Shown here piece by piece: positions 1 to 57,810 of a DNA stretch of 64,000 nucleotides; positions within the stretch are counted from its first letter, which is position 1, and each line of letters starts with the position of its first letter. The stretch comes from Nitrospinota bacterium. Lineage in GTDB: Bacteria > Nitrospinota_A > UBA7883. Both the position numbers and the translations under genes were made by a program. The notes below the pieces were generated by a model. That model was not told where the DNA came from and searched no databases. It saw only the letters and a list, made by a program, of their open reading frames with translations. The stretch lies in assembly GCA_965223725.1 (NCBI GenBank), contig CBDCXE010000003.1, forward strand, positions 156,689 to 220,688, read 5' to 3'.

Positions 1-175
1 GAAATTTTTCTTCAGCATAGCGCTGGCCAACAGACCGGCCTTGCTGCTGGCGATAATGCTGATATTCATCGGCGTGCAGTTTGTGTCGATCGGGCTGCTG
101 GCGGAGATGCTGTCGCGCACATACCATGAATCGCAAGACAAGCCTGTGTATGTGATCAAGAACATTCTGCAGTAG
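1..175 (+). CDS. 3' end of a membrane glycosyltransferase-like protein (partial; C-terminal TM segment ...LLAEMLSRTYHESQDKPVYVIKNILQ)
   Basis: Open frame runs off the window start; C-terminus resembles the hydrophobic tail of GT2/dolichol-phosphate-mannosyltransferase-like proteins; stop TAG at 173-175. Confidence 0.35.
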   Translation, partial: KFFFSIALANRPALLLAIMLIFIGVQFVSIGLLAEMLSRTYHESQDKPVYVIKNILQ

Positions 176-4287: not shown

Positions 4288-5175
4288 TCATGGTTGTTGT
4301 GATTGCCCGGAGTTTACCGACAGGATCATGACAAAGCTCGATTTCGATTTTTCCTTGTCCACCCCCCGCAGGAAGTTGACACTGAAGGAATCGGAGACGC
4401 CTTCCGAGCTGGCGATGACAACGCTTCCCGGGTCGTCCATCAAAATTTCTGTCGCCGCGTTTTTAACAATGAATGTTTCCCTCTTCTTGTCGTAATAGCT
4501 GACTTCTGGAACGAGGGAGACCCGCATCTTACCCTTACCAGCGCTCCTTGCCGTCACAACAAAGCTGGTACCAGCGTCCTTGAACTTCACATTTCTGGAG
4601 ATATAGCCATAGCGATAGCCATAGCTGAAAAAGTACTCCGTCAACGGCACCGATTCACCAACGAATATCCTGCCCTCGTGCCCTTCCATGAGCAGCAGAA
4701 ACTGCTTCTTCTTGCTGTCGAGGGTGGAGGAGGTGACCGAGCCTGTTACATGGACACCTTCCATGTCGTGGGGAACATTGCCCACGGTCCATCCAGGCCC
4801 CGAAATTCGCCAGTCCACATTGATTCCCAGCTTGTCCAGTTGCTCCTTCTCGATGAAATCGACATCTATCCGGATATTCTTCGGCCTGCGGTCCAGCCGC
4901 GCGATAAGGTCACGCGCCCTGGCGATATAAGCGGGAGTATCTACAACAATTAGAGTATTGGAAGGTGAGTTGACCGTGACCTTGCCTTTGTCACTCAGCA
5001 CAGACGCAACAGATTCGATAAGCTCCTGCGCGTCGGAATAATGGATCTCGAATACTTCAACAACGGTGGATTGGGCATATGCCGGGCTAGCCATAAGCAG
5101 AAGCTTGCAAAACACCAACCCGGCAAATGTTACCTTCGCAGATCCATCCATACGAATAATTTTATGCCATGGCAT
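4288..5175 (-). CDS. secretin N-domain (NolW-like) containing protein, signal-peptide bearing, lacks recognisable secretin C-domain
   Basis: Signal peptide (LLLMASPAYAQ) followed by a secretin_N-like module (ELIESVASVLSDKGKVTVNSPSNTLIVVDTPAYIARARDLIARL); 5-nt gap to the downstream epimerase; overlaps the upstream gene by 14 nt. Confidence 0.5.
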   Translation of the reverse strand: MPWHKIIRMDGSAKVTFAGLVFCKLLLMASPAYAQSTVVEVFEIHYSDAQELIESVASVLSDKGKVTVNSPSNTLIVVDTPAYIARARDLIARLDRRPKNIRIDVDFIEKEQLDKLGINVDWRISGPGWTVGNVPHDMEGVHVTGSVTSSTLDSKKKQFLLLMEGHEGRIFVGESVPLTEYFFSYGYRYGYISRNVKFKDAGTSFVVTARSAGKGKMRVSLVPEVSYYDKKRETFIVKNAATEILMDDPGSVVIASSEGVSDSFSVNFLRGVDKEKSKSSFVMILSVNSGQSQQP

Positions 5176-5485
5176 GGCGCAGATCGATAACGCCTATAAC
5201 CGCCACACAATCGCCCTTGGAGTCCCGAATAGGCGCGGCCATGACAGGTATCCCTTTATAGGGGCCGGATGTTGGCTTCTCACGCACGATCTCGTTTGTT
5301 TCCAGAACCTTTTCCAGCACCGGGCCGGTAAAATCATCATTTAATATGCGGCCAGATTCAACACGAATACCGTTCTTGTTTTTGCTGCGCATTGTAACCG
5401 GAAACTGGTCAACTATCTGATAAACAGCCAGCGCTATCGGGGCCAACTCTTCGCCGGTAGTGTCGGCAGTAATTAAATCTTTCAT
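5162..5485 (-). CDS. hypothetical protein (first gene of secretin-N/epimerase operon)
   Basis: 107 aa ORF translationally coupled (14-nt overlap) to the secretin-N protein gene. Confidence 0.4.
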   Translation of the reverse strand: MKDLITADTTGEELAPIALAVYQIVDQFPVTMRSKNKNGIRVESGRILNDDFTGPVLEKVLETNEIVREKPTSGPYKGIPVMAAPIRDSKGDCVAVIGVIDLRHAMA

Positions 5486-6974: not shown

Positions 6975-8072
6975 TCAGTCCCCCTTGATCTGTTCTATAG
7001 TTTTTTTCACCATATCCTCTGCGATGCCCAGGGTCAGCTCTCTGGTTATAGCGTTGATCTGTTCCAGGATCTCCGGCTGTAGGTTGTTTATGGCTCTGCC
7101 GACACCCTTTTCAATGGCTTCTTCAAAATCGCCACCTGCAAATTTATTATTTATCACATTCTTCACTTCATCTTCGATCAGCGTCTGGAAATAGCTGGTG
7201 GATATTACATCTTCCACAGCTTTCCTGGTAGCTTCTTCCCACATATGGGAGCCAGGCTCAATCTTGTCTGTAGAGGTGACAACATTGTCTGGCACATCGA
7301 TAGGCTCTGTTCCGATATCACTTTCTTCCAGGATGTCGTTAGAGTCGCTTTCCAGATAATCGTACAGCTCTTTTTCAAGATCCACCGGCGTGTCATCCCG
7401 GGCGGCCGCAAAGCTGGCGCCTCGATTGTGTCTGGGTGAATTATTCTGGTCAACCAGCTCAGGCGTCTCTTCTCCGGTTGAATCGAGCAATATATCGCTC
7501 GCAACCTCGATGTCAGCATCATTCGGCTCAACATCAGCCGGGCGATCTATTTCCGCTTCCAACAGTTCTATATTGTAATCAAAACCATCATCATCCTGTT
7601 TATTATCGGTTGCTACAGTCTCTAGCAAGCTATCGAGCTGGACATCGATATCTTCAAATGAATCATCATCGCCATCTTCCTGTTGGCCAGGGTCAGCAGA
7701 AATAATTTTATGAACCTCGCTCACCATGTTTTCTGACCGAAATGGCTTTTCGAACCTTCCAGCGGCTTTCACTTTGTCAGCTTGATCAAAATCAAAATCA
7801 TCCAGAGCGCTCGACATCAGATAGACAGGAATCTGCGCAGTGGAAGGGTTTCTCTTTAACGCGGCGCAAAGCTCGAACCCGTCAAGGCCAGGCATGCTCA
7901 CATCCGCAATAACCATGGATGGCTTGTATTGCACCGCCCGCTCCAGCGCTTCATCACCGTCGCGCGCAATTATCATATCTATCGCTTCATTCTCGAATGC
8001 AAGCTCAAACACTTTCTGTATAGTAACGCTATCGTCCGCTACCACTACTTTCGGATTGTTTCCTTCAGACAT
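6975..8072 (-). CDS. response regulator receiver protein with long acidic C-terminal region
   Basis: CheY-like REC (VVVADDS...MVIADVSMPGLDG...KPF) followed by a ~240 aa D/E-rich low-complexity tail. Confidence 0.75.
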   Translation of the reverse strand: MSEGNNPKVVVADDSVTIQKVFELAFENEAIDMIIARDGDEALERAVQYKPSMVIADVSMPGLDGFELCAALKRNPSTAQIPVYLMSSALDDFDFDQADKVKAAGRFEKPFRSENMVSEVHKIISADPGQQEDGDDDSFEDIDVQLDSLLETVATDNKQDDDGFDYNIELLEAEIDRPADVEPNDADIEVASDILLDSTGEETPELVDQNNSPRHNRGASFAAARDDTPVDLEKELYDYLESDSNDILEESDIGTEPIDVPDNVVTSTDKIEPGSHMWEEATRKAVEDVISTSYFQTLIEDEVKNVINNKFAGGDFEEAIEKGVGRAINNLQPEILEQINAITRELTLGIAEDMVKKTIEQIKGD

Positions 8073-8233
8073 AGTTATCGCTTCAATTGACAGTTGATTT
8101 GACCAGCTTACACATACTGCCGGGGTGTGTCAATCAACTGGTTGTAAACTTTAATATTTCGGCACTATTTTATCTAATAGAAACTAAAACTGCCGGCTGG
8201 TTTCTGCTATTATATTCGATAGTTTCATAATGT

Positions 8234-8327
8234 GGAAGATGAGCGCGCCCGGTGGCGCGGCTGGACTTCAAATCCAGACAGGGGCGAATACGTCCTGGGA
8301 GGGTTCGACTCCCTTCATCTTCCGCCA
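8234..8327 (+). tRNA. selC: tRNA-Sec (selenocysteine tRNA, anticodon UCA)
   Basis: 94 nt: 8-bp acceptor stem GGAAGATG/CATCTTCC, 6-bp D-stem with 4-nt loop, anticodon loop CTTCAAA (UCA), long variable arm, T-arm GGTTCGACTCC, discriminator G, encoded CCA; near-identical in all arms to E. coli selC. Confidence 0.9.
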
Positions 8328-8377
8328 TATCTTCAATGATAACTATGGAATTAAACGACAATGAACATTCCAGCAAT

Positions 8378-9355
8378 ATGAGCATGCAGGAAGGGGCCAC
8401 AACCATTCGACCGGGGCACAAGTTTGCCGCTATACTTTTCTGTTGCTCCATCACCTTGATGCTATCCACCACAGATGTGGCGCAAAGCGCCGGCAGGGAT
8501 TCCACATTGATAATAGGTCAGGTCTCCTCCAACCCGAAAGATGATTATCATAAGCTTAAACCTGTTGTTGATTACACAGTTTCGCATATGGCTGATCTGG
8601 GTATCACAGAAGGTAAAGTTGTGATGGCAAAGGATAACTTACAACTTGTTGAATATATACGTGAGGGGAAGGTGGACTGGGTGACGCAGCCGCCCTTCTC
8701 CGCCATGATCTGCATGGAAGAAACAGGCGCGGAGATCATTTTGCGCAGGTGGATAGAAGGCGCGCCCGATAACTATTCAATTATCTTTACCCATAAAGAT
8801 AACAAAGTAAAATCGCTCGATTTTCTGAAGGGTAGGACTATAGCTTATAAGGACCCAGGCTCCACAGCGTCATACCTGGCGCCCATGGCGGAGCTTCGTA
8901 TGAATGGAATTGAATCGGCGCCCCTTAAAAGCGTGAATAGTAAACCAATGCCCGAAAAGGCAGGATATGTTTTCGCCGGTTCTGATTTGAATATAGCGGC
9001 ATGGGTGCGCGACAAAAAAGTAAACGCAGGGGCCATGAGCAACGTAGATTATATCAACATGAAAAAAAGCCTGGGCCCATGGCAGAAGGATATGAAAATA
9101 GTGTATGAAACTGCTCCGTTCCCGGCGGCGTTGGAGATGGTAAGACGAGACCTGGACCCAAACATCAAGCGGAGGCTGACGCAAACCTTGCTGGGCGCCC
9201 ATCGAGACAAAGCCGCCGGCGCTGCCATTGCAGCCTATAATAGTACATCCAAATTTGAAAAAGTTGACCAGGGCCTGAAGCAAAAGCTGGATGATCTGGG
9301 TCAGTTTGTTAATCTGATCCGCCCAGAAATAAAAATCAGCCGGCAGAATCTATGA
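8378..9355 (+). CDS. periplasmic phosphonate-binding-like (PhnD/SsuA family) substrate-binding domain protein
   Basis: Signal peptide then PhnD-like fold (DLKGRTIAYKDPGSTASYLAP); the ORF-track start at 8252 lies inside the tRNA-Sec gene, so the true start is downstream (ATG 8345, 8378 or 8384). Confidence 0.65.
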   Translation: MSMQEGATTIRPGHKFAAILFCCSITLMLSTTDVAQSAGRDSTLIIGQVSSNPKDDYHKLKPVVDYTVSHMADLGITEGKVVMAKDNLQLVEYIREGKVDWVTQPPFSAMICMEETGAEIILRRWIEGAPDNYSIIFTHKDNKVKSLDFLKGRTIAYKDPGSTASYLAPMAELRMNGIESAPLKSVNSKPMPEKAGYVFAGSDLNIAAWVRDKKVNAGAMSNVDYINMKKSLGPWQKDMKIVYETAPFPAALEMVRRDLDPNIKRRLTQTLLGAHRDKAAGAAIAAYNSTSKFEKVDQGLKQKLDDLGQFVNLIRPEIKISRQNL

Positions 9356-23178: not shown

Positions 23179-23743
23179 TGAAGAAAGGTCGATTAGCTGG
23201 GCAGGTTATGTCGCGACCTGTTGAGTCTACATTCATCAAGCGATGAACACCGCCCAGGCAGACAACAGCATCACAGCATGTGAACTGACGCGTGGAGCCA
23301 TTACTCCGCAGCGCCAGGAAGCGGGTTACGCTGTTTTCTGCAAAGTTTCTTCGTTACAGTGGTGGCATACATGGCTCTGGTCCCGGCCGCACATCAGGCA
23401 GGAGACGGAGCCTCTGTAGTAGCGGATTATTCCACCACAATGCTTGCACTTGTTTTCTTGTTTGACGATTGTTTTAGCTCTAATCATTTTTCTGTTCTAA
23501 AAAAATTAATATTTGCAATTAGTAAAACGCAAATTGCATGCCTGAATGCTATAAGTATGCTAAATAATTGTAACATCTATAAATACAATCTATTGAGACC
23601 ATAGATTGCAAGTTGTGTTTTCTTATTGGCTTAAAGAATTTATTATTGCGACAATTTTTGTAGCGTTTGCCAAAAATAGTCACCACCAAAATGCTATATT
23701 TGTATAGTAAAAGTGTACAAAAATCGCTTAATGAACTAAAAAA

Positions 23744-30680: not shown

Positions 30681-30965
30681 ATGACAAAAATAGACATTAT
30701 TAATCGTGTAGCCGATCAGACTGGACTTCCAAAACAGGACGCAGACCTGTCCATCGAAACCATCATAGCTTTGATTAAGGAATCACTTTCGCACGATGAA
30801 CCGGTCATACTACGCAGGTTCGGCTCGTTCCAGACCCGCGAAAAAAGTCCCCGCATCGGCAGAAACCCGAAAACGGGTGAAGAAGCAAATATTTCGGCGC
30901 GCAAGGTTGTTCGCTTCAAGGCGGGCAAACATTTCAAGCAGGCAGTAAACAACGAAATCGACTGA
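30681..30965 (+). CDS. HU/IHF family DNA-binding protein
   Basis: [38 protein letters not shown], the HU/IHF arm signature. Confidence 0.85.
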
Positions 30966-33675: not shown

Positions 33676-34088
33676 ATTTACTCCGAAAGATAAGTGTAAA
33701 GATAAATTGGAAGGATACCCCGCCCGCGCTCCATTTGCAAGGGGCGAAGGGCGAAGAGGGCTGAACAGTCCAGGCGCGCCAGACGAGTCGAAAGTCCGCC
33801 GGGCCGGATGGCCGCAGGCTCGATCAATCAACAATGTAAAACCAAATTCATATCCACGTCATAACAGACACTCCACAGTAAACAGTTACCACGCACACAT
33901 TAATATAATAATAAATTTATGAATAAAGTCAAGAAGGAAATGAAAAGTTGGTAGGGTGGGTGATTGGTAGGGGAAGGTAAAAATAAAAATCTGTAAAAAG
34001 CGACTAGACCGGTGGAGTGAAAAGTTGAATTAGTGAAATAAATTGTGCTACCCTTTATTTATAAACAAACAAGGGTTCAATTATTACA

Positions 34089-34529
34089 ATGCTTAATTCA
34101 TCAATTACAACATTACCTAATACAGATGTGCTTCAGGATATTTCGGACACTATTAAGTTTCTAAAAAAAGAAGCACATAAAAAGTTTTCATTTTTGAAAG
34201 TTATATGGAAAGTATTTAAAATACAGGCGAAATTTAGAATTTTATTGAATAATATCGAACTAATTGAAAAAAAATCATTTGGAATAGCAAAGCCAGACCA
34301 TCAAATTTGGCAAGAAATAAAAGATCAACTTTCGGTAGCTTGTTCTGATAGTAATGAATTTATTGCCATACTGAAAGATTACAACTATTTAAAGCTTTTT
34401 ATTAAATCTCAAGAAGAAATTTCAGATAGATTTGAAGAAAAACTCGAAGCCTATCAATTTGTAGGGGATAGCGAAGCCAATGACTTAATGAATGAAATAG
34501 CTGAACTGGCAACGCGTGACAGTGGATGA
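34089..34529 (+). CDS. hypothetical alpha-helical protein (first gene of AT-rich cassette)
   Basis: 146 aa ORF in the AT-rich island; 14-nt overlap with the downstream RelE/HigB-like ORF; no recognised family. Confidence 0.4.
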   Translation: MLNSSITTLPNTDVLQDISDTIKFLKKEAHKKFSFLKVIWKVFKIQAKFRILLNNIELIEKKSFGIAKPDHQIWQEIKDQLSVACSDSNEFIAILKDYNYLKLFIKSQEEISDRFEEKLEAYQFVGDSEANDLMNEIAELATRDSG

Positions 34530-34866
34530 TTTACTACCCTTCTTTGCTCGACAGATAGACAAGATATTAAAAAGCTATCCTAACTCAAATAGCTCCCTCA
34601 ATAACCTACTTTTAAAGATATCAGATAATCCATTATCATTCGGCAATCGAATGCCAGGTTTCGATCAACATATTAGGAAAATAAGAGCAGGTTTTCCAGA
34701 GTATAAGATTTCTAAAAGAGATGGAGCGCGTATTATTATATTGGTTACAGAGCAGCAAAAACCAATATTTATATCTATTTATTTAAAATCTAAGTCCAAA
34801 GGCGAGCAGGCTGAAATAAAATACATAAAAGATAAACTTAAGGAAATAAAATCTGAGTTGGAATAG
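34516..34866 (+). CDS. RelE/ParE/HigB(Gp49)-superfamily toxin-like protein
   Basis: C-terminal core IRKIRAGFPEYKISKRDGARIIILVTEQQKPIFISIYLKSK fits the RelE/HigB pattern (G..R.iy...g..i.i..i..K). Confidence 0.45.
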   Translation: MTVDDLLPFFARQIDKILKSYPNSNSSLNNLLLKISDNPLSFGNRMPGFDQHIRKIRAGFPEYKISKRDGARIIILVTEQQKPIFISIYLKSKSKGEQAEIKYIKDKLKEIKSELE

Positions 34867-34955
34867 TGGGGTCAGGTCTTTGATTTTGATATTCCATGAA
34901 ACGATTTCTGCGGCGCAGTAGCTGAGCGTTCCAATTCATAACAGCAATCCGTGTG

Positions 34956-35273
34956 CTATTGCGCAGTAAGCACTTCCAGTTGAACACCTTCTTTCTTTTG
35001 CAGATAATTAATCATTTCAAAAAGATTTTGCGCCTGGGGGTTGCCGCGGGCGCCGAGCATGCGCATCAGGCTTTTGGGTGATTTGTTCATGGCGCGGGCC
35101 AGCTCCTCGAAACCTATGGTGGCGTTAATATAATCGCGAAGCGCCGCCTTGCCGGTCTCCATATCGTTGGCAAGCATGAGCTGGACAGCTTCCGTCAGTA
35201 ACGCGTTGCGGAACCCTTTATCATGCAGCGCGCGCTCCTGAATTGTCTCTTTAAAATCCCGTGTCAATACCAT
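34956..35273 (-). CDS. higA: HigA-family addiction-module antidote protein
   Basis: Antidote-protein pattern (TIQERALHDKGFRNALLTEAVQLMLAND ... MNKSPKSLMRMLGARGNP); overlaps the upstream toxin gene. Confidence 0.75.
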   Translation of the reverse strand: MVLTRDFKETIQERALHDKGFRNALLTEAVQLMLANDMETGKAALRDYINATIGFEELARAMNKSPKSLMRMLGARGNPQAQNLFEMINYLQKKEGVQLEVLTAQ

Positions 35274-35619
35274 CCTGTTTTTCCTCTCTTTTCCTCTTCT
35301 TATAATCCAGCCATAAAAGTTTGGCGCTCTCTATATCCTTCTGTTGCCGTTTTTTCGTGCCGCCGCCCAGCAAAATAATTAGCCGGTCTCCATCTTTACC
35401 AAAGTAAATTCGGTAGCCGGGACCAAAATCGAGCCGCAATTCCCAGACACCGGCTCCAACGCTTTTATGGTCGGACAAGTTGCCCAGTTCGACCCGTGTC
35501 AGAGCTATGGTTACCCGCACGGCGGTAGTTGCATTCAGACGATTGAACCATTTTGCGAATGGACTTTTGCCATGTGTGTCCAAATACTCTCTGACTTCAA
35601 CCATGTTAAATGGTAACAT
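35251..35619 (-). CDS. higB: addiction-module killer protein (HigB/RelE-like toxin)
   Basis: VGAGVWELRLDFGPGYRIYFGKDGDRLIILLGGGTKKRQQKDIESAK matches the killer-protein family; likely start at internal Met (AAGGT 6 nt upstream); the ORF-track start at 35706 is an extension. Confidence 0.7.
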   Translation of the reverse strand: MLPFNMVEVREYLDTHGKSPFAKWFNRLNATTAVRVTIALTRVELGNLSDHKSVGAGVWELRLDFGPGYRIYFGKDGDRLIILLGGGTKKRQQKDIESAKLLWLDYKKRKREEKQDGIDTGF

Positions 35620-35731
35620 ATACGTTACCTTTGTTAACCATAAACCTGATTGCGCCCCGGCCCCCGCGATAGTAGACTTCTTGTACGGCTTGATGCGTGG
35701 GTTCAACTGGTTACAGGAGTGATGCTGTCGA

Positions 35732-37802: not shown

Positions 37803-39032
37803 ATGAGCCGTACGGCTTCGGTAATTACAATAGTTGCGACCATTTTTGCGTTGTCGCTGGCGTTCGCTTTTACTGGACCAGGCAAAGGAATTTATAAGCC
37901 GGGCCCTTTACTGTCGGGGCATGAAAGGTTTGGGACCGCTTGCCAGGCTTGTCACGAAAGATGGAGCGACCCATCGGAAGAAAAATGTATAGTTTGCCAC
38001 CAGCATCTTAAGAAAGACGACACCCACTCGGCCAAAGCAATGGCGAATCCGGTCAAGGCCGTTATCCCGGCCGAACTGGAGAAGCTAGGCTGTGTGTCAT
38101 GCCATATGGAGCATATGGCTGACATCATTTCATCCGGATATACCGGCCCGCTCGACTTTTGTATCGGTTGCCATCCGGTGGATAAGCTGAACCTGGGGCA
38201 CAAAAAATTTGGCAATAAATCGTGCGCCGAATCGTCGTGCCATAACTATCATTACAACCTGCCCGTAGAAGAATTTAAAACTTCCAGTAATGTCCGGCTA
38301 TTGCCATCTACCATAAAGGTAGTAAAGCCAGAGCCGAAAGAGCGCTTTAAAGCGACCGATGAAGTGATGGAGGCCATGCGCGGCTCCAAATTTTATAAAT
38401 CGAACAAGATAATATCCGCCCAGTATAACCTGAGCGATCACAACGGCACTGAGGCCACATGCGACAAGTGCCATAAAACGAAACTCGGTTTGCGAACCCT
38501 TCAGCCATCGATTAATGTTTGCATGTCTTGCCATGAGTATCAGACCAGGACGTTTGGGTTTGGCAGGCATGGCGCCCCGTCGCGGCTGAAGGTCGCGCCG
38601 GCGGAAGATGAAAGCGCGCAGGTCGGATGCGGGTCGTGCCACGATGTGCACAGCCTGAGGCAGGAAAACTCCAGATATCAGGCATGCGTCCGGTGCCATG
38701 AAAATGACCATGAATTAAATTACAGTAAATCCGGGCATTCGCGGTACCTGACCGACCCTGTGTTTAATCTGAAGCCGATGAAAGGCGCCGACTGCGCCAC
38801 CTGCCATATGCCATTGATGGAAAACGCCCAGGGGGCCACCATGCATAATGAAAGCTATACATCATCATCCAGATGGAAAATGGCTGAAACCGTATGCGTG
38901 CGGTGCCACGGCCTGGAGTTTGCGCTGCGTGGCCTGTATGACAATGGTATGGTCAAGCATGGCTTCACATTCTCGCCAGACTCCACCCCGGTGGGGATTG
39001 AATACGGATTCCGTAAAACGGATGTAAAATAG
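37803..39032 (+). CDS. multiheme (deca-heme) cytochrome c, secreted
   Basis: Signal peptide; 10 CXXCH motifs (CQACH, CIVCH, CVSCH, CIGCH, CDKCH, CMSCH, CGSCH, CVRCH, CATCH, CVRCH) plus one CX4CH. Confidence 0.85.
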   Translation: MSRTASVITIVATIFALSLAFAFTGPGKGIYKPGPLLSGHERFGTACQACHERWSDPSEEKCIVCHQHLKKDDTHSAKAMANPVKAVIPAELEKLGCVSCHMEHMADIISSGYTGPLDFCIGCHPVDKLNLGHKKFGNKSCAESSCHNYHYNLPVEEFKTSSNVRLLPSTIKVVKPEPKERFKATDEVMEAMRGSKFYKSNKIISAQYNLSDHNGTEATCDKCHKTKLGLRTLQPSINVCMSCHEYQTRTFGFGRHGAPSRLKVAPAEDESAQVGCGSCHDVHSLRQENSRYQACVRCHENDHELNYSKSGHSRYLTDPVFNLKPMKGADCATCHMPLMENAQGATMHNESYTSSSRWKMAETVCVRCHGLEFALRGLYDNGMVKHGFTFSPDSTPVGIEYGFRKTDVK

Positions 39033-39065
39033 TAGATATAGACTGTTAGGCTGGTAATTAAGAAA

Positions 39066-40520
39066 ATGTATTCACAATCACAAACATTAAAATCTCTGGT
39101 CAATTCACCGCAATTGGCGGGCGCCCCGGTGGAAGCGGTGGAAAACCTGATCGAACATGGAGATTTGACCCACATCCCCGCCGGGGAAGTGATCATCGAA
39201 GAGGGCGAGTTCGAGATGATCAGTTACTATGTCCTGGAAGGGAAGTTCCAGATCCGGGTCACCGACAGAGAGACAGGCGAAAAACGCCTGGCATGGGAAG
39301 TGGGCCCCGGTAAAATTCTGGGCGCCATGGCTATATTGGGCGGCACACCCCGCATCGCCGAGGTGAAATGCGTCAAGAACGCCACAATGTTAAGGATAGA
39401 GCGGAAGCACCTGCTCGACTTCCTGGCGGCGGCCCCCACTGTAAAAGCGCGCTTGGATAATACGTATAAGGAAAAGGCGCTTTTGCACGTCTTGATGAAG
39501 GTCGACTTTTTCTCTCATATAGAAGGGCCGGTGATGCAGGCGCTGGCCAAGAAGGTCGAACTGAAGTTCTATAAAAAGGGTGACGTGATCTTCTATCACG
39601 GGGACCGGGCCGAAGAGTTTTTCATGATCCGGGACGGATTCGTGAAGGTTTCCCGCGCCATCAGCGAGGCGGACGCCGCGTTTTTCGATTCCCGGTTCGA
39701 CAAGACCCAGATAAACCCGATGAAAGAGCAGAAAGATGAAGAGTTCATTATGGGCTATATTGGCCCGGGCCAATATTTCGGCGAGCTGGCGCTGTTCGAT
39801 AACCGAAGACGCTCCGCCACGGTCACGGCGTTGACCCGGCTGGAACTGGTGGTTATCACAAGAAATGATTTCCAGGCCCTGATACTGCGCTATCCGGAGA
39901 TAGGGCAGAGGATGCGGGAAGTGGCGGATTATCGATATGCAAGTGACAAACAGCTGGCCCAGTCGAAGCAGGATATGCTCAAATGGGTGGCCAGCCATGA
40001 CATACTGGCGGCGGAGTCGCTGTTGATCCTGGATCTGAACCAATGCATGCGCTGCCTCAACTGCATCAGCGCCTGCGCCAAGCTCCATGACGGCGTCACC
40101 CGCATCACCCATAACGGTGTGCGCTATAAAAATATATTGATACCCACATCGTGCCGCCACTGCCGCGAACCGACCTGCATGATAGGCTGCCCCACCGGCG
40201 CGATACAGCGCGACATCCATGGCGAAGTGTTCCACACCGATTCATGTATCGGGTGCGGCAATTGCGCGTCTCGGTGCCCCTTTGGCAATATCAGCATTGT
40301 GGAGCTGAGCAGCGGTAAAAAGTGGTGGGCGCGTCCGGGCCGTGGCAACGGTGGATCCCCGAAGGCGCGGATCCCCGCCAAGATAGACAAGCGTGCCGTT
40401 AAATGCGATATGTGTATGGATTACGATTACATGGGTTGCGAGCATAACTGCCCCACGGGCGCCATCAAATCGGTCAAGCCATCCGAATATTTCGCCAAAT
40501 ATTCACAGGAAGACAAATGA
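39066..40520 (+). CDS. protein with two cyclic-nucleotide-binding domains fused to 4Fe-4S ferredoxin (polyferredoxin) domains
   Basis: Two cNMP-binding beta-roll segments (GEVIIEEGE...RIAEVKC; GDVIFYHGD...RRSATVTA) and four Cys clusters (CMRCLNCISAC, CRHCREPTCMIGCP, CIGCGNCASRCP, CDMCMDYDYMGCEHNCP). Confidence 0.8.
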   Translation: MYSQSQTLKSLVNSPQLAGAPVEAVENLIEHGDLTHIPAGEVIIEEGEFEMISYYVLEGKFQIRVTDRETGEKRLAWEVGPGKILGAMAILGGTPRIAEVKCVKNATMLRIERKHLLDFLAAAPTVKARLDNTYKEKALLHVLMKVDFFSHIEGPVMQALAKKVELKFYKKGDVIFYHGDRAEEFFMIRDGFVKVSRAISEADAAFFDSRFDKTQINPMKEQKDEEFIMGYIGPGQYFGELALFDNRRRSATVTALTRLELVVITRNDFQALILRYPEIGQRMREVADYRYASDKQLAQSKQDMLKWVASHDILAAESLLILDLNQCMRCLNCISACAKLHDGVTRITHNGVRYKNILIPTSCRHCREPTCMIGCPTGAIQRDIHGEVFHTDSCIGCGNCASRCPFGNISIVELSSGKKWWARPGRGNGGSPKARIPAKIDKRAVKCDMCMDYDYMGCEHNCPTGAIKSVKPSEYFAKYSQEDK

Positions 40521-41329
40521 CCGACGAAGCTTATCGTTTATTGGCCCTTAGCGCGGCCACGGTATTGATCGCATTCGGTATTGGTTTCGTAGAGCCGTTC
40601 GCCTATGAGAGGTCGTTTGGATCATTTTCCATCAAGCCGTATTTCGGTTGGCTAACCTTGCTTTTTGCCATCGTCTCTGCGTTATACAGCCTCCGCAAAA
40701 GGGTTGTCATACAGCTCCCGGGCAGACTAATTGTCTGGAAACTGGCGCACATAATCCTTGGCCTTACCGTGCTGGTCCTGATGTATCTGCATTCTGGCGG
40801 GGCCATGGGGCAAGGAGCTTCGCTGGCGGTAAATTTACTGGTGGTCGGGCTGCTGCTGACTGGGGTCTGGGGCATAATTAACCAGGGATTGATACCCAGG
40901 ATAATGACCGAATCGTTGGAGGATCCGGTCTATAAAAGCGAATTGCAAGATGATGTGAACGAAATGCTAAAAGAAATCTCTGATGATCTGGACGAGCAGT
41001 CACCCGAGTTTAACCGGATCTACCAGCGCCATATATTACCGGCGATCACTCTGGAACATCCCACGGAAGGTAACCAGAAAGCGCTCTATCAACGTTACGA
41101 CCCATCCTCCAACGATCCCACCGCCGCCATCCAAGACCTGAACGCCATGAGCCTGGGTGAAATTGAAGATTTCTACCAAATGGCCGAGAAGGTGATGGAC
41201 ATTGTGGAAATCCGCCGAAGCCAGACTTATCAGCGTAACATGAACCATTGGCTTGTTTGGCACGTGGGTATGACCGCGGCGTTGGGTGTGGCCCTTTTTT
41301 TCCATGTGCTCGCTTCGCTATATTTTTAA
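40517..41329 (+). CDS. hypothetical integral membrane protein (4-5 TM), last gene of cytochrome operon
   Basis: Hydrophobicity; start overlaps the stop of the upstream gene. Confidence 0.5.
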   Translation: MTDEAYRLLALSAATVLIAFGIGFVEPFAYERSFGSFSIKPYFGWLTLLFAIVSALYSLRKRVVIQLPGRLIVWKLAHIILGLTVLVLMYLHSGGAMGQGASLAVNLLVVGLLLTGVWGIINQGLIPRIMTESLEDPVYKSELQDDVNEMLKEISDDLDEQSPEFNRIYQRHILPAITLEHPTEGNQKALYQRYDPSSNDPTAAIQDLNAMSLGEIEDFYQMAEKVMDIVEIRRSQTYQRNMNHWLVWHVGMTAALGVALFFHVLASLYF

Positions 41330-41386
41330 TGGAACTCTGGAATGGTTTGTTATAGTATTGAAAAAGTTTAATTTGGGAGATTGTTA

Positions 41387-41758
41387 ATGAGTGATACATT
41401 GAAAAAAGTTTTATTGATAGTGACCACCAGCGATGAAGAGACCTTCCGCGCAGGGATGCTCAACGCCGCCAACCTGCTGGCGTCTGATGTAGAGGTGCAG
41501 TTTTTCATCAGCCAGCAAGCGTGCAATTTTTTTACCAAAAGCAGTTTTGACAGCGCGCCGGATGGGACAACGACTGTGAAGGGCCGGGTCACCGATGCGA
41601 TGAAACTTGGGGCCAGTATAATTATCTGCCGAACAGCCATCGCCAACTATGGCCTGGGGCCGGAGGATTTCATCGACGGTGTGGACGCCACAAAAGGCTG
41701 GATGGATATCGTTGATGACCAGATCGATCCTAACGTACAGGTTGTGTGGGTTGGATAG
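41387..41758 (+). CDS. DsrE/DsrF-like family protein
   Basis: KKVLLIVTTSDEET...QFFISQQA pattern of the DsrE/YchN-like fold; GGGAGA RBS before the ATG at 41387. Confidence 0.55.
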   Translation: MSDTLKKVLLIVTTSDEETFRAGMLNAANLLASDVEVQFFISQQACNFFTKSSFDSAPDGTTTVKGRVTDAMKLGASIIICRTAIANYGLGPEDFIDGVDATKGWMDIVDDQIDPNVQVVWVG

Positions 41759-49362: not shown

Positions 49363-50424
49363 ATGAATAAAACAGTATCGACAGGACAGAAACCGACTCC
49401 AGAAGTGGAGTCGTACAAGAAAGTTGCCAGAGATTTACTGAAATTAAGCGAGTTTTCTTTAGCGCTGGGTGTATGTAACCAAGGTTTGAATAAAAACCCT
49501 GATAGTAGCGCGATGTTTATTACCAAGTCAGAAGTTTTCATCGCCCAATACAAAGGCGAAAGCAACCCGGACTTGCTGAAAAAAGCTTTATCAAACCTGA
49601 ATAATGCCATAAAGCTGGACCCGAACAACTATATAGCCAAAATCCTTGCCAGTCAGATATACCTTAAGGGCAGCGCATTCAGCAAGGCCACAACCTTGTT
49701 GGAAAGTATTTTGAGCGCGTTTCCCAACGACGCCCGGGCATTGGCGTTGATGGACGCGGTCACCGCCAAAATGGCCAAACAGGTGACGCAGACTGCCAAG
49801 GTTCAGGACGTGGAAAAAAAGGCCAGGGCGGAAGCGAAGCCGTCTGCGGCGCCAGCGTCCGACATCATGCAAGGCATGTCCGCCGCCGCCGACAGGGGCG
49901 AAAGGGCCAAGCCGACTGATCCAGAGGTCGTCGAGGATGAAGTGATAATTGCCAGCGACGCCGAACGCCCGGTCGAGGTTCCGGGTGGACTGGTGGAGAC
50001 CAGCCCGGGTGACACCGGTTGGTTTACCGATGACCAGGAGGTCATATTAATCGGTGATGACAAGGACGACACCAAGCATATTGAAATACTGAAATCCAAT
50101 TTCACCATGTTCAGCCGGCTGGATGGTCTGAGCGCGATTTTCCTTGTCAGCGAAAATGGAGAGCCGCTGAAGATCATAAACAAATCCAAAATCGATGAAA
50201 AAGTTTTGCCGTCGCTGATATCAGACCTGTACAGGGCTTCGTTTGTGGGTGTTCAGAAAACACGCTTCGGCAGTTTTCAACGGGGTAAGCTGGTGACACC
50301 TTTGGGCACCATATTCATTGCCAATGCGTTCTATGCGATTCTGGCGCTGGTGGTGAAGAATGACGCCAACTTCAAAACTGTCAACGCCCGGATAAACAGA
50401 TATCTCGAAGAGGTGTCACGATGA
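49363..50424 (+). CDS. TPR-like N-terminal domain + C-terminal Roadblock/LC7 (MglB-like) domain protein
   Basis: TPR-like helical N-terminus; C-terminal ~110 aa has the Roadblock pattern (LSAIFLVSENGEPL ... FIANAFYAILALVV). Confidence 0.55.
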   Translation: MNKTVSTGQKPTPEVESYKKVARDLLKLSEFSLALGVCNQGLNKNPDSSAMFITKSEVFIAQYKGESNPDLLKKALSNLNNAIKLDPNNYIAKILASQIYLKGSAFSKATTLLESILSAFPNDARALALMDAVTAKMAKQVTQTAKVQDVEKKARAEAKPSAAPASDIMQGMSAAADRGERAKPTDPEVVEDEVIIASDAERPVEVPGGLVETSPGDTGWFTDDQEVILIGDDKDDTKHIEILKSNFTMFSRLDGLSAIFLVSENGEPLKIINKSKIDEKVLPSLISDLYRASFVGVQKTRFGSFQRGKLVTPLGTIFIANAFYAILALVVKNDANFKTVNARINRYLEEVSR

Positions 50425-50783
50425 ACGCGCTTAAATCCGCGCTGAATATTTTACGTAATGATCATCACGTGCGAGACAGCCTGGTTGTCACGAAGGACGG
50501 TATGATAATAGAGTCGAGTTTGGATGATATACGCAGGGCGGAGAAGTTAAGCGCTTATTCGTCGCAGATTGCGCTAACAATCAAGGCATCTATGAAAGAT
50601 TTGGGGTTTGATAATTTTATCCGGTATGTAATAAGCTCCAACGAGGGCAAGATATATATTGTCGACCTGGGCCAATCGCTGCTGGTCACGCTGACCGACC
50701 TGGATATTGATTCTGAAAGAATAAATGTGGCGCTATTTCAAGCGGCGAACCTCATTAAAAAATCGGGCAGACTGGATATATAG
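50421..50783 (+). CDS. Roadblock/LC7 domain protein (MglB-like)
   Basis: DSLVVTKDGMIIESS ... KIYIVDLGQSLLVTLT; start overlaps the upstream stop (ATGA). Confidence 0.7.
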   Translation: MNALKSALNILRNDHHVRDSLVVTKDGMIIESSLDDIRRAEKLSAYSSQIALTIKASMKDLGFDNFIRYVISSNEGKIYIVDLGQSLLVTLTDLDIDSERINVALFQAANLIKKSGRLDI

Positions 50784-50803
50784 GGTGTAAATAAAATATA
50801 ACC

Positions 50804-52033
50804 ATGCAAATAAACTATGCAAAGCAGGAGGTGTCTTGCAAGATCGTCTATTATGGGCCGGGGATGAGCGGCAAGACAACCAACCTGGAGATAATACACC
50901 AAAAGGTTCCTGAAGATAACAAAGGGCAAATGACATCTATCGCCACAGAAGGCGATCGCACCCTGTTTTTCGATTTTCTGCCTTTGGACCTGGGCAACGT
51001 GAGGGGTATGACGACCAAGTTCCAGCTTTATACCGTGCCGGGGCAGGTCTACTACGCTTCCACAAGGAAGTTGGTGTTGCAAGGCGCCGATGGCGTTATA
51101 TTTGTCGCCGACTCTCAGGCGGACAAGCTGGCCGAGAATATCGAGTCGTTTGAAGATCTTAAGGAGAACCTGAGTGAATCGAGGATCGATATTGAGGAAA
51201 TACCGTTTGTGATGCAGTGGAACAAGCGTGACCTTCCGGGCGCCATGCCGATAGAAGAGCTGGAAGAAAAAGTAAACCTGATCAACGCGCCGTCCGTATC
51301 GGCGGTGGCGGCGACTGGTGAGGGAGTGCTGGAGACATTGAAAATGATAGCGTCCCTGGTATTGGAGAGGCTCAATAGCAGTGATAAAGCAGAACAACCC
51401 GCCGCCAAGCCGGCGCCAGCGCAAGCGCCCAAAAAAACGGATCATGGCGCCGATGAGTATATCGCCAAGGTCAACAACGATTCGATCTCGAAGGCGTATT
51501 TCAACCAGTATTGTCAGGTTCAGTACAGGCTGGGTGTTAAAAACGATGCAGTGAGTGATTTTAAAAAGTTTACACTGGAAGAGAAAAAGAGACTGCTCGA
51601 TTCCTTGATCAACTATGTCCTGCTGCTACAAGACGCTAAAAGCCGTGGTTTAAAAGCGGACAGGAGTGAGGTGTCTGCCCAGTTAAGTTCGTTCAGTAAT
51701 AAGTTTCGCGCCAGGGAAGAGCTCGATAAATTCCTGGAAACGCGTAACCTCACCATGGACAATCTGCGCAATGAGGCCATTAAAAACATCATCATCGGAA
51801 AAATCATCCATGATGTTATTCCCGATGTACAGCAGAGGGTTCGAATATCAGAAAATGAGATGCGCGATCACTATAATGAAAACAAGAATAAATACGGTGA
51901 TAAGCCGTTGGATCAGGTGAAAAGGGATGTAGCTTCCTATTTAAAGGCCATCAAAAAACGCGCTTTACTCAACGAGTTTTACAGTAAACTACGATCCCGG
52001 GCCTCTATTGAAGTGAGGGAAGATAAATTATAA
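50804..52033 (+). CDS. mglA: MglA-family Ras-like small GTPase fused to a C-terminal SurA-N-like chaperone domain
   Basis: N-terminal ~190 aa near-collinear with MglA (KIVYYGPGMSGKTTNL, DRTLFFDFLPL, YTVPGQVYY, NKRD); Ala/Pro-rich linker; C-terminal ~200 aa matches the SurA/PpiD N-terminal domain pattern (LLDSLINYVLLLQDAKSRGLKADRSEV ...). Confidence 0.8.
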   Translation: MQINYAKQEVSCKIVYYGPGMSGKTTNLEIIHQKVPEDNKGQMTSIATEGDRTLFFDFLPLDLGNVRGMTTKFQLYTVPGQVYYASTRKLVLQGADGVIFVADSQADKLAENIESFEDLKENLSESRIDIEEIPFVMQWNKRDLPGAMPIEELEEKVNLINAPSVSAVAATGEGVLETLKMIASLVLERLNSSDKAEQPAAKPAPAQAPKKTDHGADEYIAKVNNDSISKAYFNQYCQVQYRLGVKNDAVSDFKKFTLEEKKRLLDSLINYVLLLQDAKSRGLKADRSEVSAQLSSFSNKFRAREELDKFLETRNLTMDNLRNEAIKNIIIGKIIHDVIPDVQQRVRISENEMRDHYNENKNKYGDKPLDQVKRDVASYLKAIKKRALLNEFYSKLRSRASIEVREDKL

Positions 52034-52051
52034 CAGTTTTGAGGTGAGCCG

Positions 52052-52552
52052 ATGAAAGATAACAAACTGCGGGACCAACGGCTTGTGTATTACAAAGAGG
52101 ATCTCGACCAGATTGATAAGCTAGTTTCAGAGTTTCTTAAACTATCCAATGCAAGATGTCTTTTTCTTATAGACAAGGAAGGGCACTCCATCACCAGCTC
52201 TGGCTCCACCCAGGAGATAGACCCGGAGACTATTTCCGCCCTTGTGGCTGGCTCCTTCGCCGCCACCAAAGAGTTGGCCAGAACATTGGGCGAGAGTGAA
52301 TTTTCCGTCATGTTTCATCAAGGCAAGACTGATAATATCCATGTGTCACTGATCGGGGACAGGGCCATAACCGCCATAGTATTCGACGAGAAAACCACTG
52401 TTGGCATGATAAATCTGTATTCGAAGGAGCTGACCAGCAAACTGGAAAAAATATTTGATATAGCGTCACGACGGGTAGCCCAACAAAGCGTGATAGAAAC
52501 CAATTATTCAGAGTCTGTAAAAGATAAACTGGACGATATGTTTAAAGACTGA
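52052..52552 (+). CDS. Roadblock/LC7 domain protein (MglB-like, third copy)
   Basis: CLFLIDKEGHSITSSGS ... AITAIVFD pattern. Confidence 0.65.
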   Translation: MKDNKLRDQRLVYYKEDLDQIDKLVSEFLKLSNARCLFLIDKEGHSITSSGSTQEIDPETISALVAGSFAATKELARTLGESEFSVMFHQGKTDNIHVSLIGDRAITAIVFDEKTTVGMINLYSKELTSKLEKIFDIASRRVAQQSVIETNYSESVKDKLDDMFKD

Positions 52553-52583
52553 GCCATTTCACTAGGCTGAATAAAGCTTCGTC

Positions 52584-54503
52584 TTGCAAAGGCATATGAA
52601 AAAAACAAGCTGGATGGTATGTTGCCTGATAATCGCGCTTTTTTATATTTCAAATGAAGGCGCTTTTGCCTATGGCGCGGATGAGCAGGGGACCTATCTG
52701 CCGTTAAACCGTTTTAATGAAGGCTCCCTTGTTTCCCACAGCGAGCTGTCGGACGCCCTTTGGTCCTGGAAAGAATCGATAGACTCCGCCGATCGTGTGG
52801 AAGCGCTGGAGGCCACCAGCAGGGTCCAGAGCTCCGTCGATCATTTTGGGCCACGCAATTTTATATCCCTCGCCGATTTTTTTATTTCTGCAGGCAGAAC
52901 AGCCATAAAGAATAATAACTATGAAGGCGCCGTTCTGGCCGGTAAAAACGCCGCCATGTTCGCGCCAGATTATCCTGCGGCAAACTTTTTTCTGGCTGAC
53001 GCTTTGTTTAAACAAGACAAGTTAAATATCAGCAGCGTAGTTTATTCCATGGTGGCGGGAATAAAATCGAAGTTAACAAATCGTTTGGAGCGCAACAGGC
53101 TGGTCTCATTCCATATGCTATATTTTCTGTTGTCTTTAGCCGTGGCGTTTGTCGCGTGTTTCCTGGTTATGCTCTATACCAACATTCACACATTGTTTGC
53201 CGATATAGCGCTCCGTTTGCCGTTCAAGCCGGGTCGGTACGTCAAGCTCGCTATTATAGCCTTGTTAATTATTTTGCCCTTCGCCCTAGGTGGTTGTTTG
53301 TTGTTCGCCATGGCTCTGCCATTGCTGACCTGGCCATACCTGCGGCCAGCGGGCCGGATGATTGTTCTGCTGTTCGCTATATTTATTCTGATCGTTCCAC
53401 CAAGTTTCAAACTGTTGGCCACAGCCGAAGTGATACAGAAAGAAGATACTTACAAGACGCTGTTATCGCTGACTGATCAAACGTGGGACCATGAGATGAT
53501 CGCGGCGCTGGAACGGGAATACGACAGCCACCCTGATAACGATCTGACCACATTTGCATTGGGTAATTTATATCATCTGGCCGGCATGGATGAAAAAGCC
53601 ATCGCCGTGTATGACGCGTTGCTGGCCATGGACCCAGGGAACGTACAGGTTATGGTGAACAAGGCGAATATATACTTCGAACTGAAAGATTATGAAAGCG
53701 CCAGAAAGCTTTATAACGAAGCGCTGGTGGTGGACCCAAAGTCTGTGGAAGCGCACTATAACCTGGCAAATACTTACACTGCGCTGTTTCGCACCAAGGA
53801 TTCCGACATTGCATACCAGAAAGCTCGCAGTATTAATCCGGAAAAAACCGACAGTTTCAGGGTCGCCCTTGAAAGTAATCCGGATAAAAAAGTATTTGGC
53901 TTTCCAATCACGAAAAAACATTTGAAACAATACAGAAAAACCATGAGCCCGAAAGTTGAATCGTTGGCTTCGGCGTTCTGGGTAACTTATTTTGGCGCCA
54001 CATCGCGCAATGCTTACTACTTGCTGGCGGTGTTGTTTTTATTGGTTGTCTGCCTGCTCTATTTAGTGTGGCATCGTGTTATCGCCCACCAGACCTGCTC
54101 TTCATGCGGCAAGCCGTTTCTTCCCCCTATCCATGTCAAATCACCAGACCCTAGGTGTAACCAGTGTGTGGCGACACAAAGCACAAAAAAAGTTGTGTCG
54201 ACAGCTAAAAAAGAGAGCAAGCGCAAGAAGATAAGGATATATCAATCACGCCGCGCTACCATCGCCAGGATCATGGACAGGGTATTGCCCGGCATGGGGC
54301 GGACCTTTTTTCAACCTACGATCACAGGGTTTGTATTAACATTTGTCACATTCTGGCTCCTGATCTATGTGGGTGTATACCTGTATGACGCCGCAGTTTT
54401 GCAATTGGGCGTTTTGGCAAGTTACTGGAAGCTTTCTATTATCGTGGTGGCGGCGCTTTACTGGCTGAGTATGAACACATTTCTTAAACGGGAATTTTAT
54501 TGA
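52584..54503 (+). CDS. polytopic membrane protein with TPR repeats and a Cys4 zinc-ribbon
   Basis: Signal/TM, TPR repeats (e.g. AIAVYDALLAMDPGNVQVMVNKANIYFELKDYESARKLYNEALVVDP), multiple TM helices, CSSCGKPF...CNQC zinc-ribbon, basic stretch. Confidence 0.6.
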   Translation: MQRHMKKTSWMVCCLIIALFYISNEGAFAYGADEQGTYLPLNRFNEGSLVSHSELSDALWSWKESIDSADRVEALEATSRVQSSVDHFGPRNFISLADFFISAGRTAIKNNNYEGAVLAGKNAAMFAPDYPAANFFLADALFKQDKLNISSVVYSMVAGIKSKLTNRLERNRLVSFHMLYFLLSLAVAFVACFLVMLYTNIHTLFADIALRLPFKPGRYVKLAIIALLIILPFALGGCLLFAMALPLLTWPYLRPAGRMIVLLFAIFILIVPPSFKLLATAEVIQKEDTYKTLLSLTDQTWDHEMIAALEREYDSHPDNDLTTFALGNLYHLAGMDEKAIAVYDALLAMDPGNVQVMVNKANIYFELKDYESARKLYNEALVVDPKSVEAHYNLANTYTALFRTKDSDIAYQKARSINPEKTDSFRVALESNPDKKVFGFPITKKHLKQYRKTMSPKVESLASAFWVTYFGATSRNAYYLLAVLFLLVVCLLYLVWHRVIAHQTCSSCGKPFLPPIHVKSPDPRCNQCVATQSTKKVVSTAKKESKRKKIRIYQSRRATIARIMDRVLPGMGRTFFQPTITGFVLTFVTFWLLIYVGVYLYDAAVLQLGVLASYWKLSIIVVAALYWLSMNTFLKREFY

Positions 54504-54504
54504 T

Positions 54505-55704
54505 ATGGCCCTTAGAGGAAGCCTGGACGATTTTAATATCGTAAACATCCTGCAGATGATAAAGCTGGAGAACAAAACCGGCAAGCTGTCCCTGAACGAA
54601 CTGGATGACCAGGTGAACATTACCTTCGATGATGGCAAAATAGTCTATGCGGAGGGCACAATCGAAAGTGATGAGAAACGTCTTCAATCAACACTGCTCA
54701 GCAACTATATGATCCGGCCCGAAGACTGGAAAGCGATTGAAACAGAACATGAAAACAGGCTCACGTCTTACTGGGATATCCTTCCGAGATATGTGAACCA
54801 TCAGGCGCTTTCGGAGCTGATCAGCCGCCAGGTGGTCGATAACGTTTACTATGCGTTGAGATGGTCCAAAGGGACATACGAATTCACGCCAATGAAAAGC
54901 GTCACGTACAACAAAAGCACAATGCCCCACCGGGATGTGGATGGGATGCTGATGGATGGTGTTCATGTGGCCGACTTATGGGTCAAGACCAGCGCTTATA
55001 TGCCCCCCATGGGCACTTACGTTGAAAAAAATATCATGGGCGAAGTGGAAGCTGGTGGAGCCCTGGATAATACAGATAGCGCGGAGAGCAGGGAGGATTT
55101 CATAGGATCGCTGGAGCATGAGATCCTGACAGCCCGCGGCGTCTCCCTTACCGATCAGGAAACAAAAGTCCTCGCTGTACTGGTTGAAAGCAAGACGATA
55201 GATGGTATTTTAAATTCCGCCCGTCAAAATAAATATGACTCATTACAGGCGTGCCAGTCGTTACTAAAGGCCGGGATCATTAAAGAGGTGAGACCAGGTG
55301 ATCAAACCGCAGCCAGGAAAGGCAACAGTAAATATTCAATAGGTGGGCTGGCCACGGTCCTGATTATAGCGGCGGTGGTAGTGGCGGGGGTGATCTACCA
55401 GCTGATAGCATGGCCCGACGGGCGGGCGGCCAGCGATAGCGGCTCTACAAAAGTTATGATTCATAACTCTGAGAAAGGGCTGAAAAAAATAGAGCATGCA
55501 ATTAAAATATATATTGCATTGAGCAGGGAATACCCCGACGATTTAAATAACCTGGTAAACTCTGGAGTATTGCAAAGCTCTGATATAGTGGATCCATGGG
55601 GCAGGGATTATGAACTGGTCATTACAGAAGATCGTTTTTCACTTTTTTCCCATGGTCCGGATGATATGACAACATCTGATAATATATATCTGCCTGCTAA
55701 TTAA
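54505..55704 (+). CDS. DUF4388 domain - TM helix - type II secretion pseudopilin (GspG)-like C-terminal domain protein
   Basis: N-terminal DUF4388 hallmark (GSLDDFNIVNILQMI); TM helix (LATVLIIAAVVVAGVIYQLI); C-terminus matches the GspG/T2SS_G domain (IKIYIALSREYPDDLNNLVNSGVL...DPWGRDYELVI...FSLFSHGPD); no prepilin cleavage motif. Confidence 0.7.
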   Translation: MALRGSLDDFNIVNILQMIKLENKTGKLSLNELDDQVNITFDDGKIVYAEGTIESDEKRLQSTLLSNYMIRPEDWKAIETEHENRLTSYWDILPRYVNHQALSELISRQVVDNVYYALRWSKGTYEFTPMKSVTYNKSTMPHRDVDGMLMDGVHVADLWVKTSAYMPPMGTYVEKNIMGEVEAGGALDNTDSAESREDFIGSLEHEILTARGVSLTDQETKVLAVLVESKTIDGILNSARQNKYDSLQACQSLLKAGIIKEVRPGDQTAARKGNSKYSIGGLATVLIIAAVVVAGVIYQLIAWPDGRAASDSGSTKVMIHNSEKGLKKIEHAIKIYIALSREYPDDLNNLVNSGVLQSSDIVDPWGRDYELVITEDRFSLFSHGPDDMTTSDNIYLPAN

Positions 55705-57294: not shown

Positions 57295-57810
57295 ATGAAA
57301 TCAAAAAGAGAACTTAAAGATATTTTAGAGAGCAGGAAAGCCCTGTTTAAACGTAAACCGGAAGCTGCTATTTACAAGCCGAAGGTGACCACGCAATGGA
57401 AAGGGGGCCTGCTGCATGAAAACAGTATAAGGGATCATATTGTAGAGTCGGACTATCCGGTTCCATCTGGCGGGTCCGATAAGGCGGCCAACCCTATGGA
57501 GTTGGTGCTTGCGTCGCTCGGCTCTTGTGTATCCGCTGTGTATATCGAATACGCCGTATTGATGGGTGTTACCCTAGACAGCGTGACCGTGGAGACGGAA
57601 GGGGTGATAGACCTGCGTGGATTGTTTAGCGTAGCCGATGATGTGCCTTCCGGGTTCGAGTCGATCACTTATAATGTAACCATCAAATCTGGCGAGGGTA
57701 AGGATGCGATCGATAAACTGATCGCCGTGGCGGAGAGCCACTGCCCGGTATCAGATTCGCTGAAAAGAAGCGTAACCGTAAAATCGAATGTCGAGGTAGT
57801 TTCCGGCTAA
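57295..57810 (+). CDS. OsmC/Ohr family protein
   Basis: Conserved Cys pair (LGSCVS ... ESHCPVSDSL). Confidence 0.8.
   Translation: MKSKRELKDILESRKALFKRKPEAAIYKPKVTTQWKGGLLHENSIRDHIVESDYPVPSGGSDKAANPMELVLASLGSCVSAVYIEYAVLMGVTLDSVTVETEGVIDLRGLFSVADDVPSGFESITYNVTIKSGEGKDAIDKLIAVAESHCPVSDSLKRSVTVKSNVEVVSG

Follow-up and report, generated by a model that had tools for sequence, protein, structure and literature searches.

The 64-kb window, by which we mean the whole stretch of 64,000 nucleotides that was analysed, contains at positions 8234-8327 of its forward strand what we consider with great confidence to be a genuine, intact, and standard bacterial selenocysteine tRNA gene (selC) with the anticodon UCA. 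ARAGORN found a single tRNA in the window and called it tRNA-SeC with the anticodon TCA, beginning and ending exactly at these positions, the tca triplet being located at position 35 of the tRNA. In Rfam, the tRNA-Sec family RF01852 matched positions 8234..8323 with 76.1 bits against a gathering score of 47. The E-value of this match is 7.4e-14 for a search of the whole window on both strands with all 4227 families, and the model was covered fully (1-91 of 91). No other Rfam family matched the window with an E-value below 0.1, and a permissive search added only a sub-threshold match to a miRNA model (E = 0.12), which we regard as due to chance. The first-pass annotation had placed a tRNA-Sec gene at 8234-8327 and had proposed tRNA-calling programs as a check. 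Both ARAGORN, which returned the same coordinates, and Rfam identify a tRNA-Sec at this locus. The gene is of an already known kind, is detectable by routine tRNA tools, and is ordinary. The sequence of 8234..8327 (+) is GGAAGATGAGCGCGCCCGGTGGCGCGGCTGGACTTCAAATCCAGACAGGGGCGAATACGTCCTGGGAGGGTTCGACTCCCTTCATCTTCCGCCA.

Structure of the tRNA

The sequence can be drawn as the canonical bacterial 8/5 cloverleaf with 31 pairs, all of which are standard, and this structure evaluates to -43.0 kcal/mol (Table 1). The acceptor stem and the T-stem are stacked directly onto each other (positions 82 and 83 are adjacent) and build a 13-bp branch, in which the T-stem contributes the pairs G.U, A-U, G-C, G-C, and G-C and closes the loop UUCGACU. 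The discriminator base is G91, corresponding to G73 in the standard numbering, and the CCA end is encoded at tRNA positions 92-94. Of the features that define membership in RF01852, those of sequence and structure are all found in this gene, namely a score above the gathering score, UCA within a 7-nt loop, the 13-bp 8/5 branch, a 6-bp D-stem with a tetraloop, a long variable arm, and G73. The 8/5 geometry of acceptor and T-stem, whose absence had been named beforehand as a reason to abandon the assignment, is present with 8 + 5 standard pairs, and the other structural details that had been listed for the cloverleaf were likewise all found in the sequence, at the same positions.

Table 1. Coordinates of the tRNA-Sec gene, its structural elements, and its direct neighbours.
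Feature	Position	Strand	Basis
tRNA-Sec (selC) gene, 94 nt with encoded CCA	8234..8327	+	ARAGORN; Rfam RF01852; 8/5 cloverleaf
Acceptor stem, 8 bp (GGAAGAUG/CAUCUUCC)	tRNA 1-8/83-90	+	Explicit pair list
Acceptor 5' strand GGAAGATG	8234..8241	+	Pairs with 8316-8323
D-arm: 6-bp stem CGCGCC/GGCGCG, 4-nt loop CGGU	8244..8259; tRNA 11-16/21-26	+	
Anticodon arm: 5-bp stem, loop CUUCAAA, anticodon 8268-8270	8261..8277; tRNA 28-32/40-44	+	
Variable arm, 21 nt: 6 contiguous pairs plus C46-G65, loop AAUA	8278..8298; tRNA 45-65	+	
T-arm: 5-bp stem GAGGG/CCCTT, loop TTCGACT	8299..8315; tRNA 66-70/78-82	+	
Acceptor 3' strand CATCTTCC, discriminator G (8324), and CCA (8325-8327)	8316..8327	+	Pair list
Response-regulator gene, divergent from the tRNA	6975..8072	-	Pfam Response_reg
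Intergenic region between response regulator and tRNA, presumed to hold both promoters	8073..8233	.	Inferred
PhnD-like periplasmic substrate-binding protein gene	8345..9355	+	Pfam Phosphonate-bd, E 1.9e-36

By free energy, the fold reaches a z-score of -3.84, and not a single one of 200 shuffled sequences folds as well. The unconstrained MFE structure (-47.3 kcal/mol) does not alter the D, anticodon, and variable arms, but its T-stem is displaced by two positions and its acceptor stem is extended to 10 bp, in contrast to the canonical 8/5 structure at -43.0 kcal/mol. The canonical register is to be preferred because of its T-loop UUCGACU, because of the alignment to the covariance model, and because the compensatory changes described below occur in exactly that register. 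The T-loop sequence given by the canonical register is universal.

There are tRNAs that resemble tRNA-Sec and insert another amino acid at UGA, namely the selC* tRNA-Cys and the serine-charged allo-tRNAs. These reach good scores with the covariance model of tRNA-Sec, among whose false positives they were first discovered (PMC5389517). Both have the long variable arm and the lengthened acceptor stem in common with the window tRNA, and the allo-tRNAs in addition have a long D-stem with a tetraloop (PMC5389517). The differences are found in the acceptor branch, at the discriminator position, and in the gene neighbourhood. Bacterial tRNA-Sec have a 13-bp acceptor branch in the 8/5 arrangement (PMC5389517), whereas the branch of the allo-tRNAs comprises 12 bp and is built from an 8- or 9-bp acceptor stem and a 4- or 3-bp T-stem (8/4 or 9/3; Mukai et al., NAR 2017, PMC5389517). 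The branch found here has 13 bp in the 8/5 arrangement including five standard T-stem pairs. The selC* tRNA-Cys, some of which carry the UCA anticodon, are characterized by a U73 discriminator and often, in some groups, by selB*/cysS* genes downstream (PMC5389517), while the window tRNA has a G at 8324 and is followed by the PhnD-like gene. In addition, UGA is the stop codon of 25 of the 60 gene models in the window, so that a general suppression of UGA would be harmful. We therefore consider it extremely improbable that the gene encodes a tRNA inserting cysteine or serine at UGA, and retain its assignment as tRNA-Sec.

Comparison with selC of E. coli and of Nitrospinota-labelled genomes

The E. 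coli selC sequence was taken from the RefSeq record annotated as tRNA-Sec. Both genes have the 8-bp acceptor stem, the 6-bp D-stem with the 4-nt loop, an identical anticodon arm, the long variable arm, the 5-bp T-stem that opens with a G.U pair, G73, and the encoded CCA in common. They differ in length, the E. coli gene having 95 nt compared to the 94 nt found here, and in the sequence and the loop of the variable arm. Overall, 73 of 95 alignment columns are identical (about 77% identity by blastn). The arms had been described as nearly identical to those of E. coli. This is appropriate for the anticodon arm (17/17) and for the acceptor stem, in which each strand is identical at seven of the eight positions, but it is overstated for the D-arm (11/16), the T-arm (13/17), and the variable arm (12/22). 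Five stem pairs differ between the two genes by compensatory double changes. These are acceptor pair 8 (a G-C pair in the window tRNA, a C-G pair in E. coli), two pairs of the D-stem, and two pairs of the T-stem, three of the five thus being located within the 8/5 branch.

Closer relatives of the tRNA are present in three MAGs, all labelled "Nitrospinota bacterium" (JAOUNV010000029.1, JAOUPQ010000015.1, and JAOUMU010000033.1). The first 44 nt at the 5' end of the window tRNA occur exactly in all three, each of which contains a tRNA-SeC according to ARAGORN. The MAG copies agree with the window tRNA in 89-90 of 95 columns, and every arm is identical except for the variable arm, which is one nucleotide longer in the MAG copies and has a G-C pair where the window tRNA has G48.U63. 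If the window tRNA, E. coli selC, and the three MAG copies are aligned together, 98.4% of the cells at the stem positions are paired, compared to 43-52% if the pairing partners are slid. Five pairs are changed on both sides, a number that is reached in none of 500 shuffles.

Hardly any of the sequence flanking the tRNA in the MAG loci can be aligned with the window. The response regulator encoded divergently to the window tRNA is only 46% identical to the one that is located divergently upstream of the tRNA-Sec in one of the MAG loci (L003, 4444-5479; Pfam-confirmed). Given that the arms of the tRNA have nevertheless been kept, this pattern indicates strong purifying selection on the tRNA sequence. 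Among named GlyQ homologues, the best ones (78-82% identity) also come from Nitrospinota/Nitrospinae MAGs, in agreement with the evidence from the tRNA. The host is an uncultured lineage, and the nearest relatives that carry a name are labelled Nitrospinota.

Neighbouring genes and the start of the PhnD-like gene

The divergent arrangement of the response-regulator gene and the tRNA-Sec gene is conserved in the relatives. In the other two MAG loci (L002 and L004), ORFs of a size similar to that of the response regulator adjoin the tRNA-Sec gene. Downstream of the window tRNA, the PhnD-like gene is accompanied by a gene for a HAMP/PAS/receiver protein as annotated by Pfam. This pair is not shared by L003, whose downstream neighbour is a convergent mutS2-like gene, and at the place of the mutS2-like gene L002 and L004 have a 787-aa ORF.

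The ORF 8252..9355, which has a GTG start and encodes 367 residues, is identical to a protein deposited at NCBI/ENA (P0001), which is encoded on a contig of 369,080 bp. If this public annotation were correct, the region would represent the 5' end of a protein-coding gene and the cloverleaf would be a chance fold. We give next to no credence to this reading. A chance fold is excluded by the Rfam E-value of 7.4e-14, and the 94 nt have been kept, with the identity given above, in genomes that do not contain such an ORF after the tRNA. In addition, the first about 50 residues of the deposited protein do not have a counterpart in any of eight homologues, which are 305-324 residues long and all start at the signal peptide, and the Phosphonate-bd domain starts well downstream of the GTG at 8252. 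In-frame ATG codons are found at 8345, 8378, and 8384, all of them 3' of the tRNA. Judged from the homologues, one of these ATGs and not the GTG at 8252 would be the true start of the PhnD-like gene, and the deposited 367-aa CDS appears to be over-extended and to start inside the tRNA gene. The tRNA gene thus seems to expose an annotation error, and the start of the deposited CDS would need to be corrected. The part of this ORF lying over the tRNA had already been regarded as an artefact in the first-pass annotation, to which the missing N-terminal counterparts lend support. The same had been proposed for the ORF 8170..8505 on the reverse strand, and this ORF indeed does not match any Pfam family and overlaps, in its entire length, the tRNA and the beginning of the PhnD-like gene.

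Some E. coli strains carry pathogenicity islands inserted at selC. The locus in the window differs from these in having neither an integrase gene nor a repeat of the tRNA 3' end nearby. A genomic island integrated at the tRNA was considered and rejected, as there is no integrase domain among the Pfam matches of the window. A second copy of the 3' end of the tRNA (26 nt) was not found in the window either, even if three mismatches were allowed.

Transcription and maturation

A scan for sigma-70 promoters did not reveal a consensus site on the forward strand upstream of the tRNA, and returned one site on the reverse strand at 8236..8209. A possible -10 box (TATATT) is located at 8211-8216, and no good -35 box accompanies it. 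At the aligned place, the MAG relatives have TTGACG and TATCAT separated by 17 nt, in contrast to the degenerate CTGCCG...TATATT of the window.

No terminator was found between the tRNA and the PhnD-like gene. The 107 nt 3' of the tRNA do not contain a stable hairpin and do not fold better than shuffled sequences (z = +1.0). Because there is no terminator and the earliest candidate start of the PhnD-like gene is only 18 nt 3' of the tRNA, read-through transcription into the PhnD-like operon would be possible. One could imagine that selC does not stand alone but is transcribed together with the signalling operon of the PhnD-like and HAMP-PAS-receiver genes, forming the 5' part of a tRNA-mRNA co-transcript, although we regard this as unlikely. 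If such a co-transcript existed, it would couple the supply of tRNA-Sec to the expression of the signalling operon, and this coupling would fall in a lineage, the Nitrospinota-labelled MAGs, that is perhaps unusually rich in selenoproteins. Given that the CCA end is encoded, maturation of the tRNA would only need RNase P at the 5' end and trimming at the 3' end.

Probable selenocysteine decoding in the host

The host probably uses selenocysteine, and it is reasonable to infer from the presence of the tRNA gene that the selenocysteine machinery is encoded elsewhere in the genome. As UGA is the normal stop codon of 25 of the 60 genes, a dedicated recoding tRNA is needed here and not a reassigned codon, and the insertion of selenocysteine would need recoding by SECIS and SelB. 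According to established knowledge, SerRS would charge the tRNA with serine, recognizing the long variable arm and G73 (PMC13326102, PMC5389517). SelA would then turn Ser-tRNASec into Sec-tRNASec using selenophosphate supplied by SelD (PMC13326102, PMC5389517). SelB would recognize the 13-bp (8/5) helix of acceptor and T-stem and deliver the tRNA to those in-frame UGA codons that have a SECIS hairpin behind them (PMC13326102, PMC5389517). Owing to this helix, the tRNA would be bound by SelB-GTP and not by EF-Tu. In-frame UGA codons elsewhere in the host genome may accordingly have been mis-annotated as stops. Nitrospinota-labelled MAGs, belonging to the GTDB phylum UBA8248, a lineage that may or may not include the host of the window, have been reported to be among the most selenoprotein-rich bacteria (2026 database paper, PMC13326102).

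The window itself was searched for selenoprotein genes with three scans. In the first, all six frames were screened for pairs of ORFs that are linked by a single in-frame TGA and of which both members have 80 codons or more. In the second, the 60 gene models were extended through TGA codons at both ends, and in the third, read-through ORFs were searched in every gap of at least 90 nt. None of the scans revealed a convincing selenoprotein gene with an in-frame UGA in the 64-kb window. All in-frame-TGA candidates either overlap a gene that has better support in a different frame or on the other strand, or they belong to genes whose Pfam domain is already complete. That the window contains no convincing gene of this type had also been the impression from the first reading, with which the three scans and the Pfam annotation of the about 60 genes agree. 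The DsrE-like and OsmC-like families, which we take to have selenoprotein members, are represented in the window by the genes 41388..41758 and 57295..57810, respectively. Both were rejected as selenoproteins, since neither contains an internal UGA. The DsrE-like gene has a cysteine where the sequence was read.

Neither SelA, SelB, and SelD nor formate dehydrogenase were found among the about 60 genes of the window by Pfam. Together with the missing selenoprotein genes and the missing consensus promoter upstream of the tRNA, this could be taken to mean that the gene is a relic, that is an intact tRNA-Sec gene in a genome that has lost selenocysteine decoding and does not have working selA/selB/selD and selenoproteins any more. 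However, selenocysteine genes are usually scattered over the genome, and their absence from 64 kb therefore says little. None of the 31 pairs is non-standard, and no identity feature has been lost. The arms other than the variable arm are identical in three further genomes despite the only 46% identity of the neighbouring protein and the unalignable flanks, which would be unexpected for a decaying gene. Thus, a relic is very unlikely, and a selC gene that is in use by the host is the preferred reading, to which nothing in the sequence runs counter.

Other genes of the window

The rest of the window represents ordinary chromosome including pfk, def-fmt, ilvD, folE, glyQ, pepA, multihaem cytochromes, and an MglA/Roadblock cluster. 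The latter extends from 49363 to 55704 on the forward strand. Besides TPR proteins and a DUF4388 protein, it encodes two MglB-like proteins (Roadblock/LC7) and a Ras/Arf-like GTPase that also carries a fused SurA_N-like region. In this composition it resembles a polarity or motility module of the MglA/MglB type. Another group of genes (37803-41758, +) encodes a multihaem cytochrome c, a protein that combines three cNMP-binding domains with fused 4Fe-4S ferredoxin domains, a 270-aa protein without Pfam match, and the small DsrE-like protein. All are oriented in the same direction, and the genes possibly form a redox-sensing operon.

The 565 nt upstream of def-fmt (23179-23743) contain neither a credible ORF nor an Rfam match. 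A gene for a 94-aa DNA-binding protein of the HU/IHF type (Pfam Bac_DNA_binding, E 1.2e-29) is located at about 30681-30965 (+), within a stretch that does not contain any ORF of at least 100 aa. Between the glyQ and DUF1538 genes there is a patch of low GC content (33835-35706; about 42% compared to about 51% in the window). It contains a Gp49/HigB-like toxin gene (35251..35706, -), an adjoining small ORF (34956..35273, -), and two ORFs without Pfam matches, and it may represent a small acquired toxin-antitoxin islet. At 4288-5485 on the reverse strand, a gene for a DUF2111 protein overlaps the start of a gene for a short secretin-like protein consisting of Secretin_N and a partial Secretin domain. 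This pairing is unusual, and DUF2111 is described as a family conserved in archaea.
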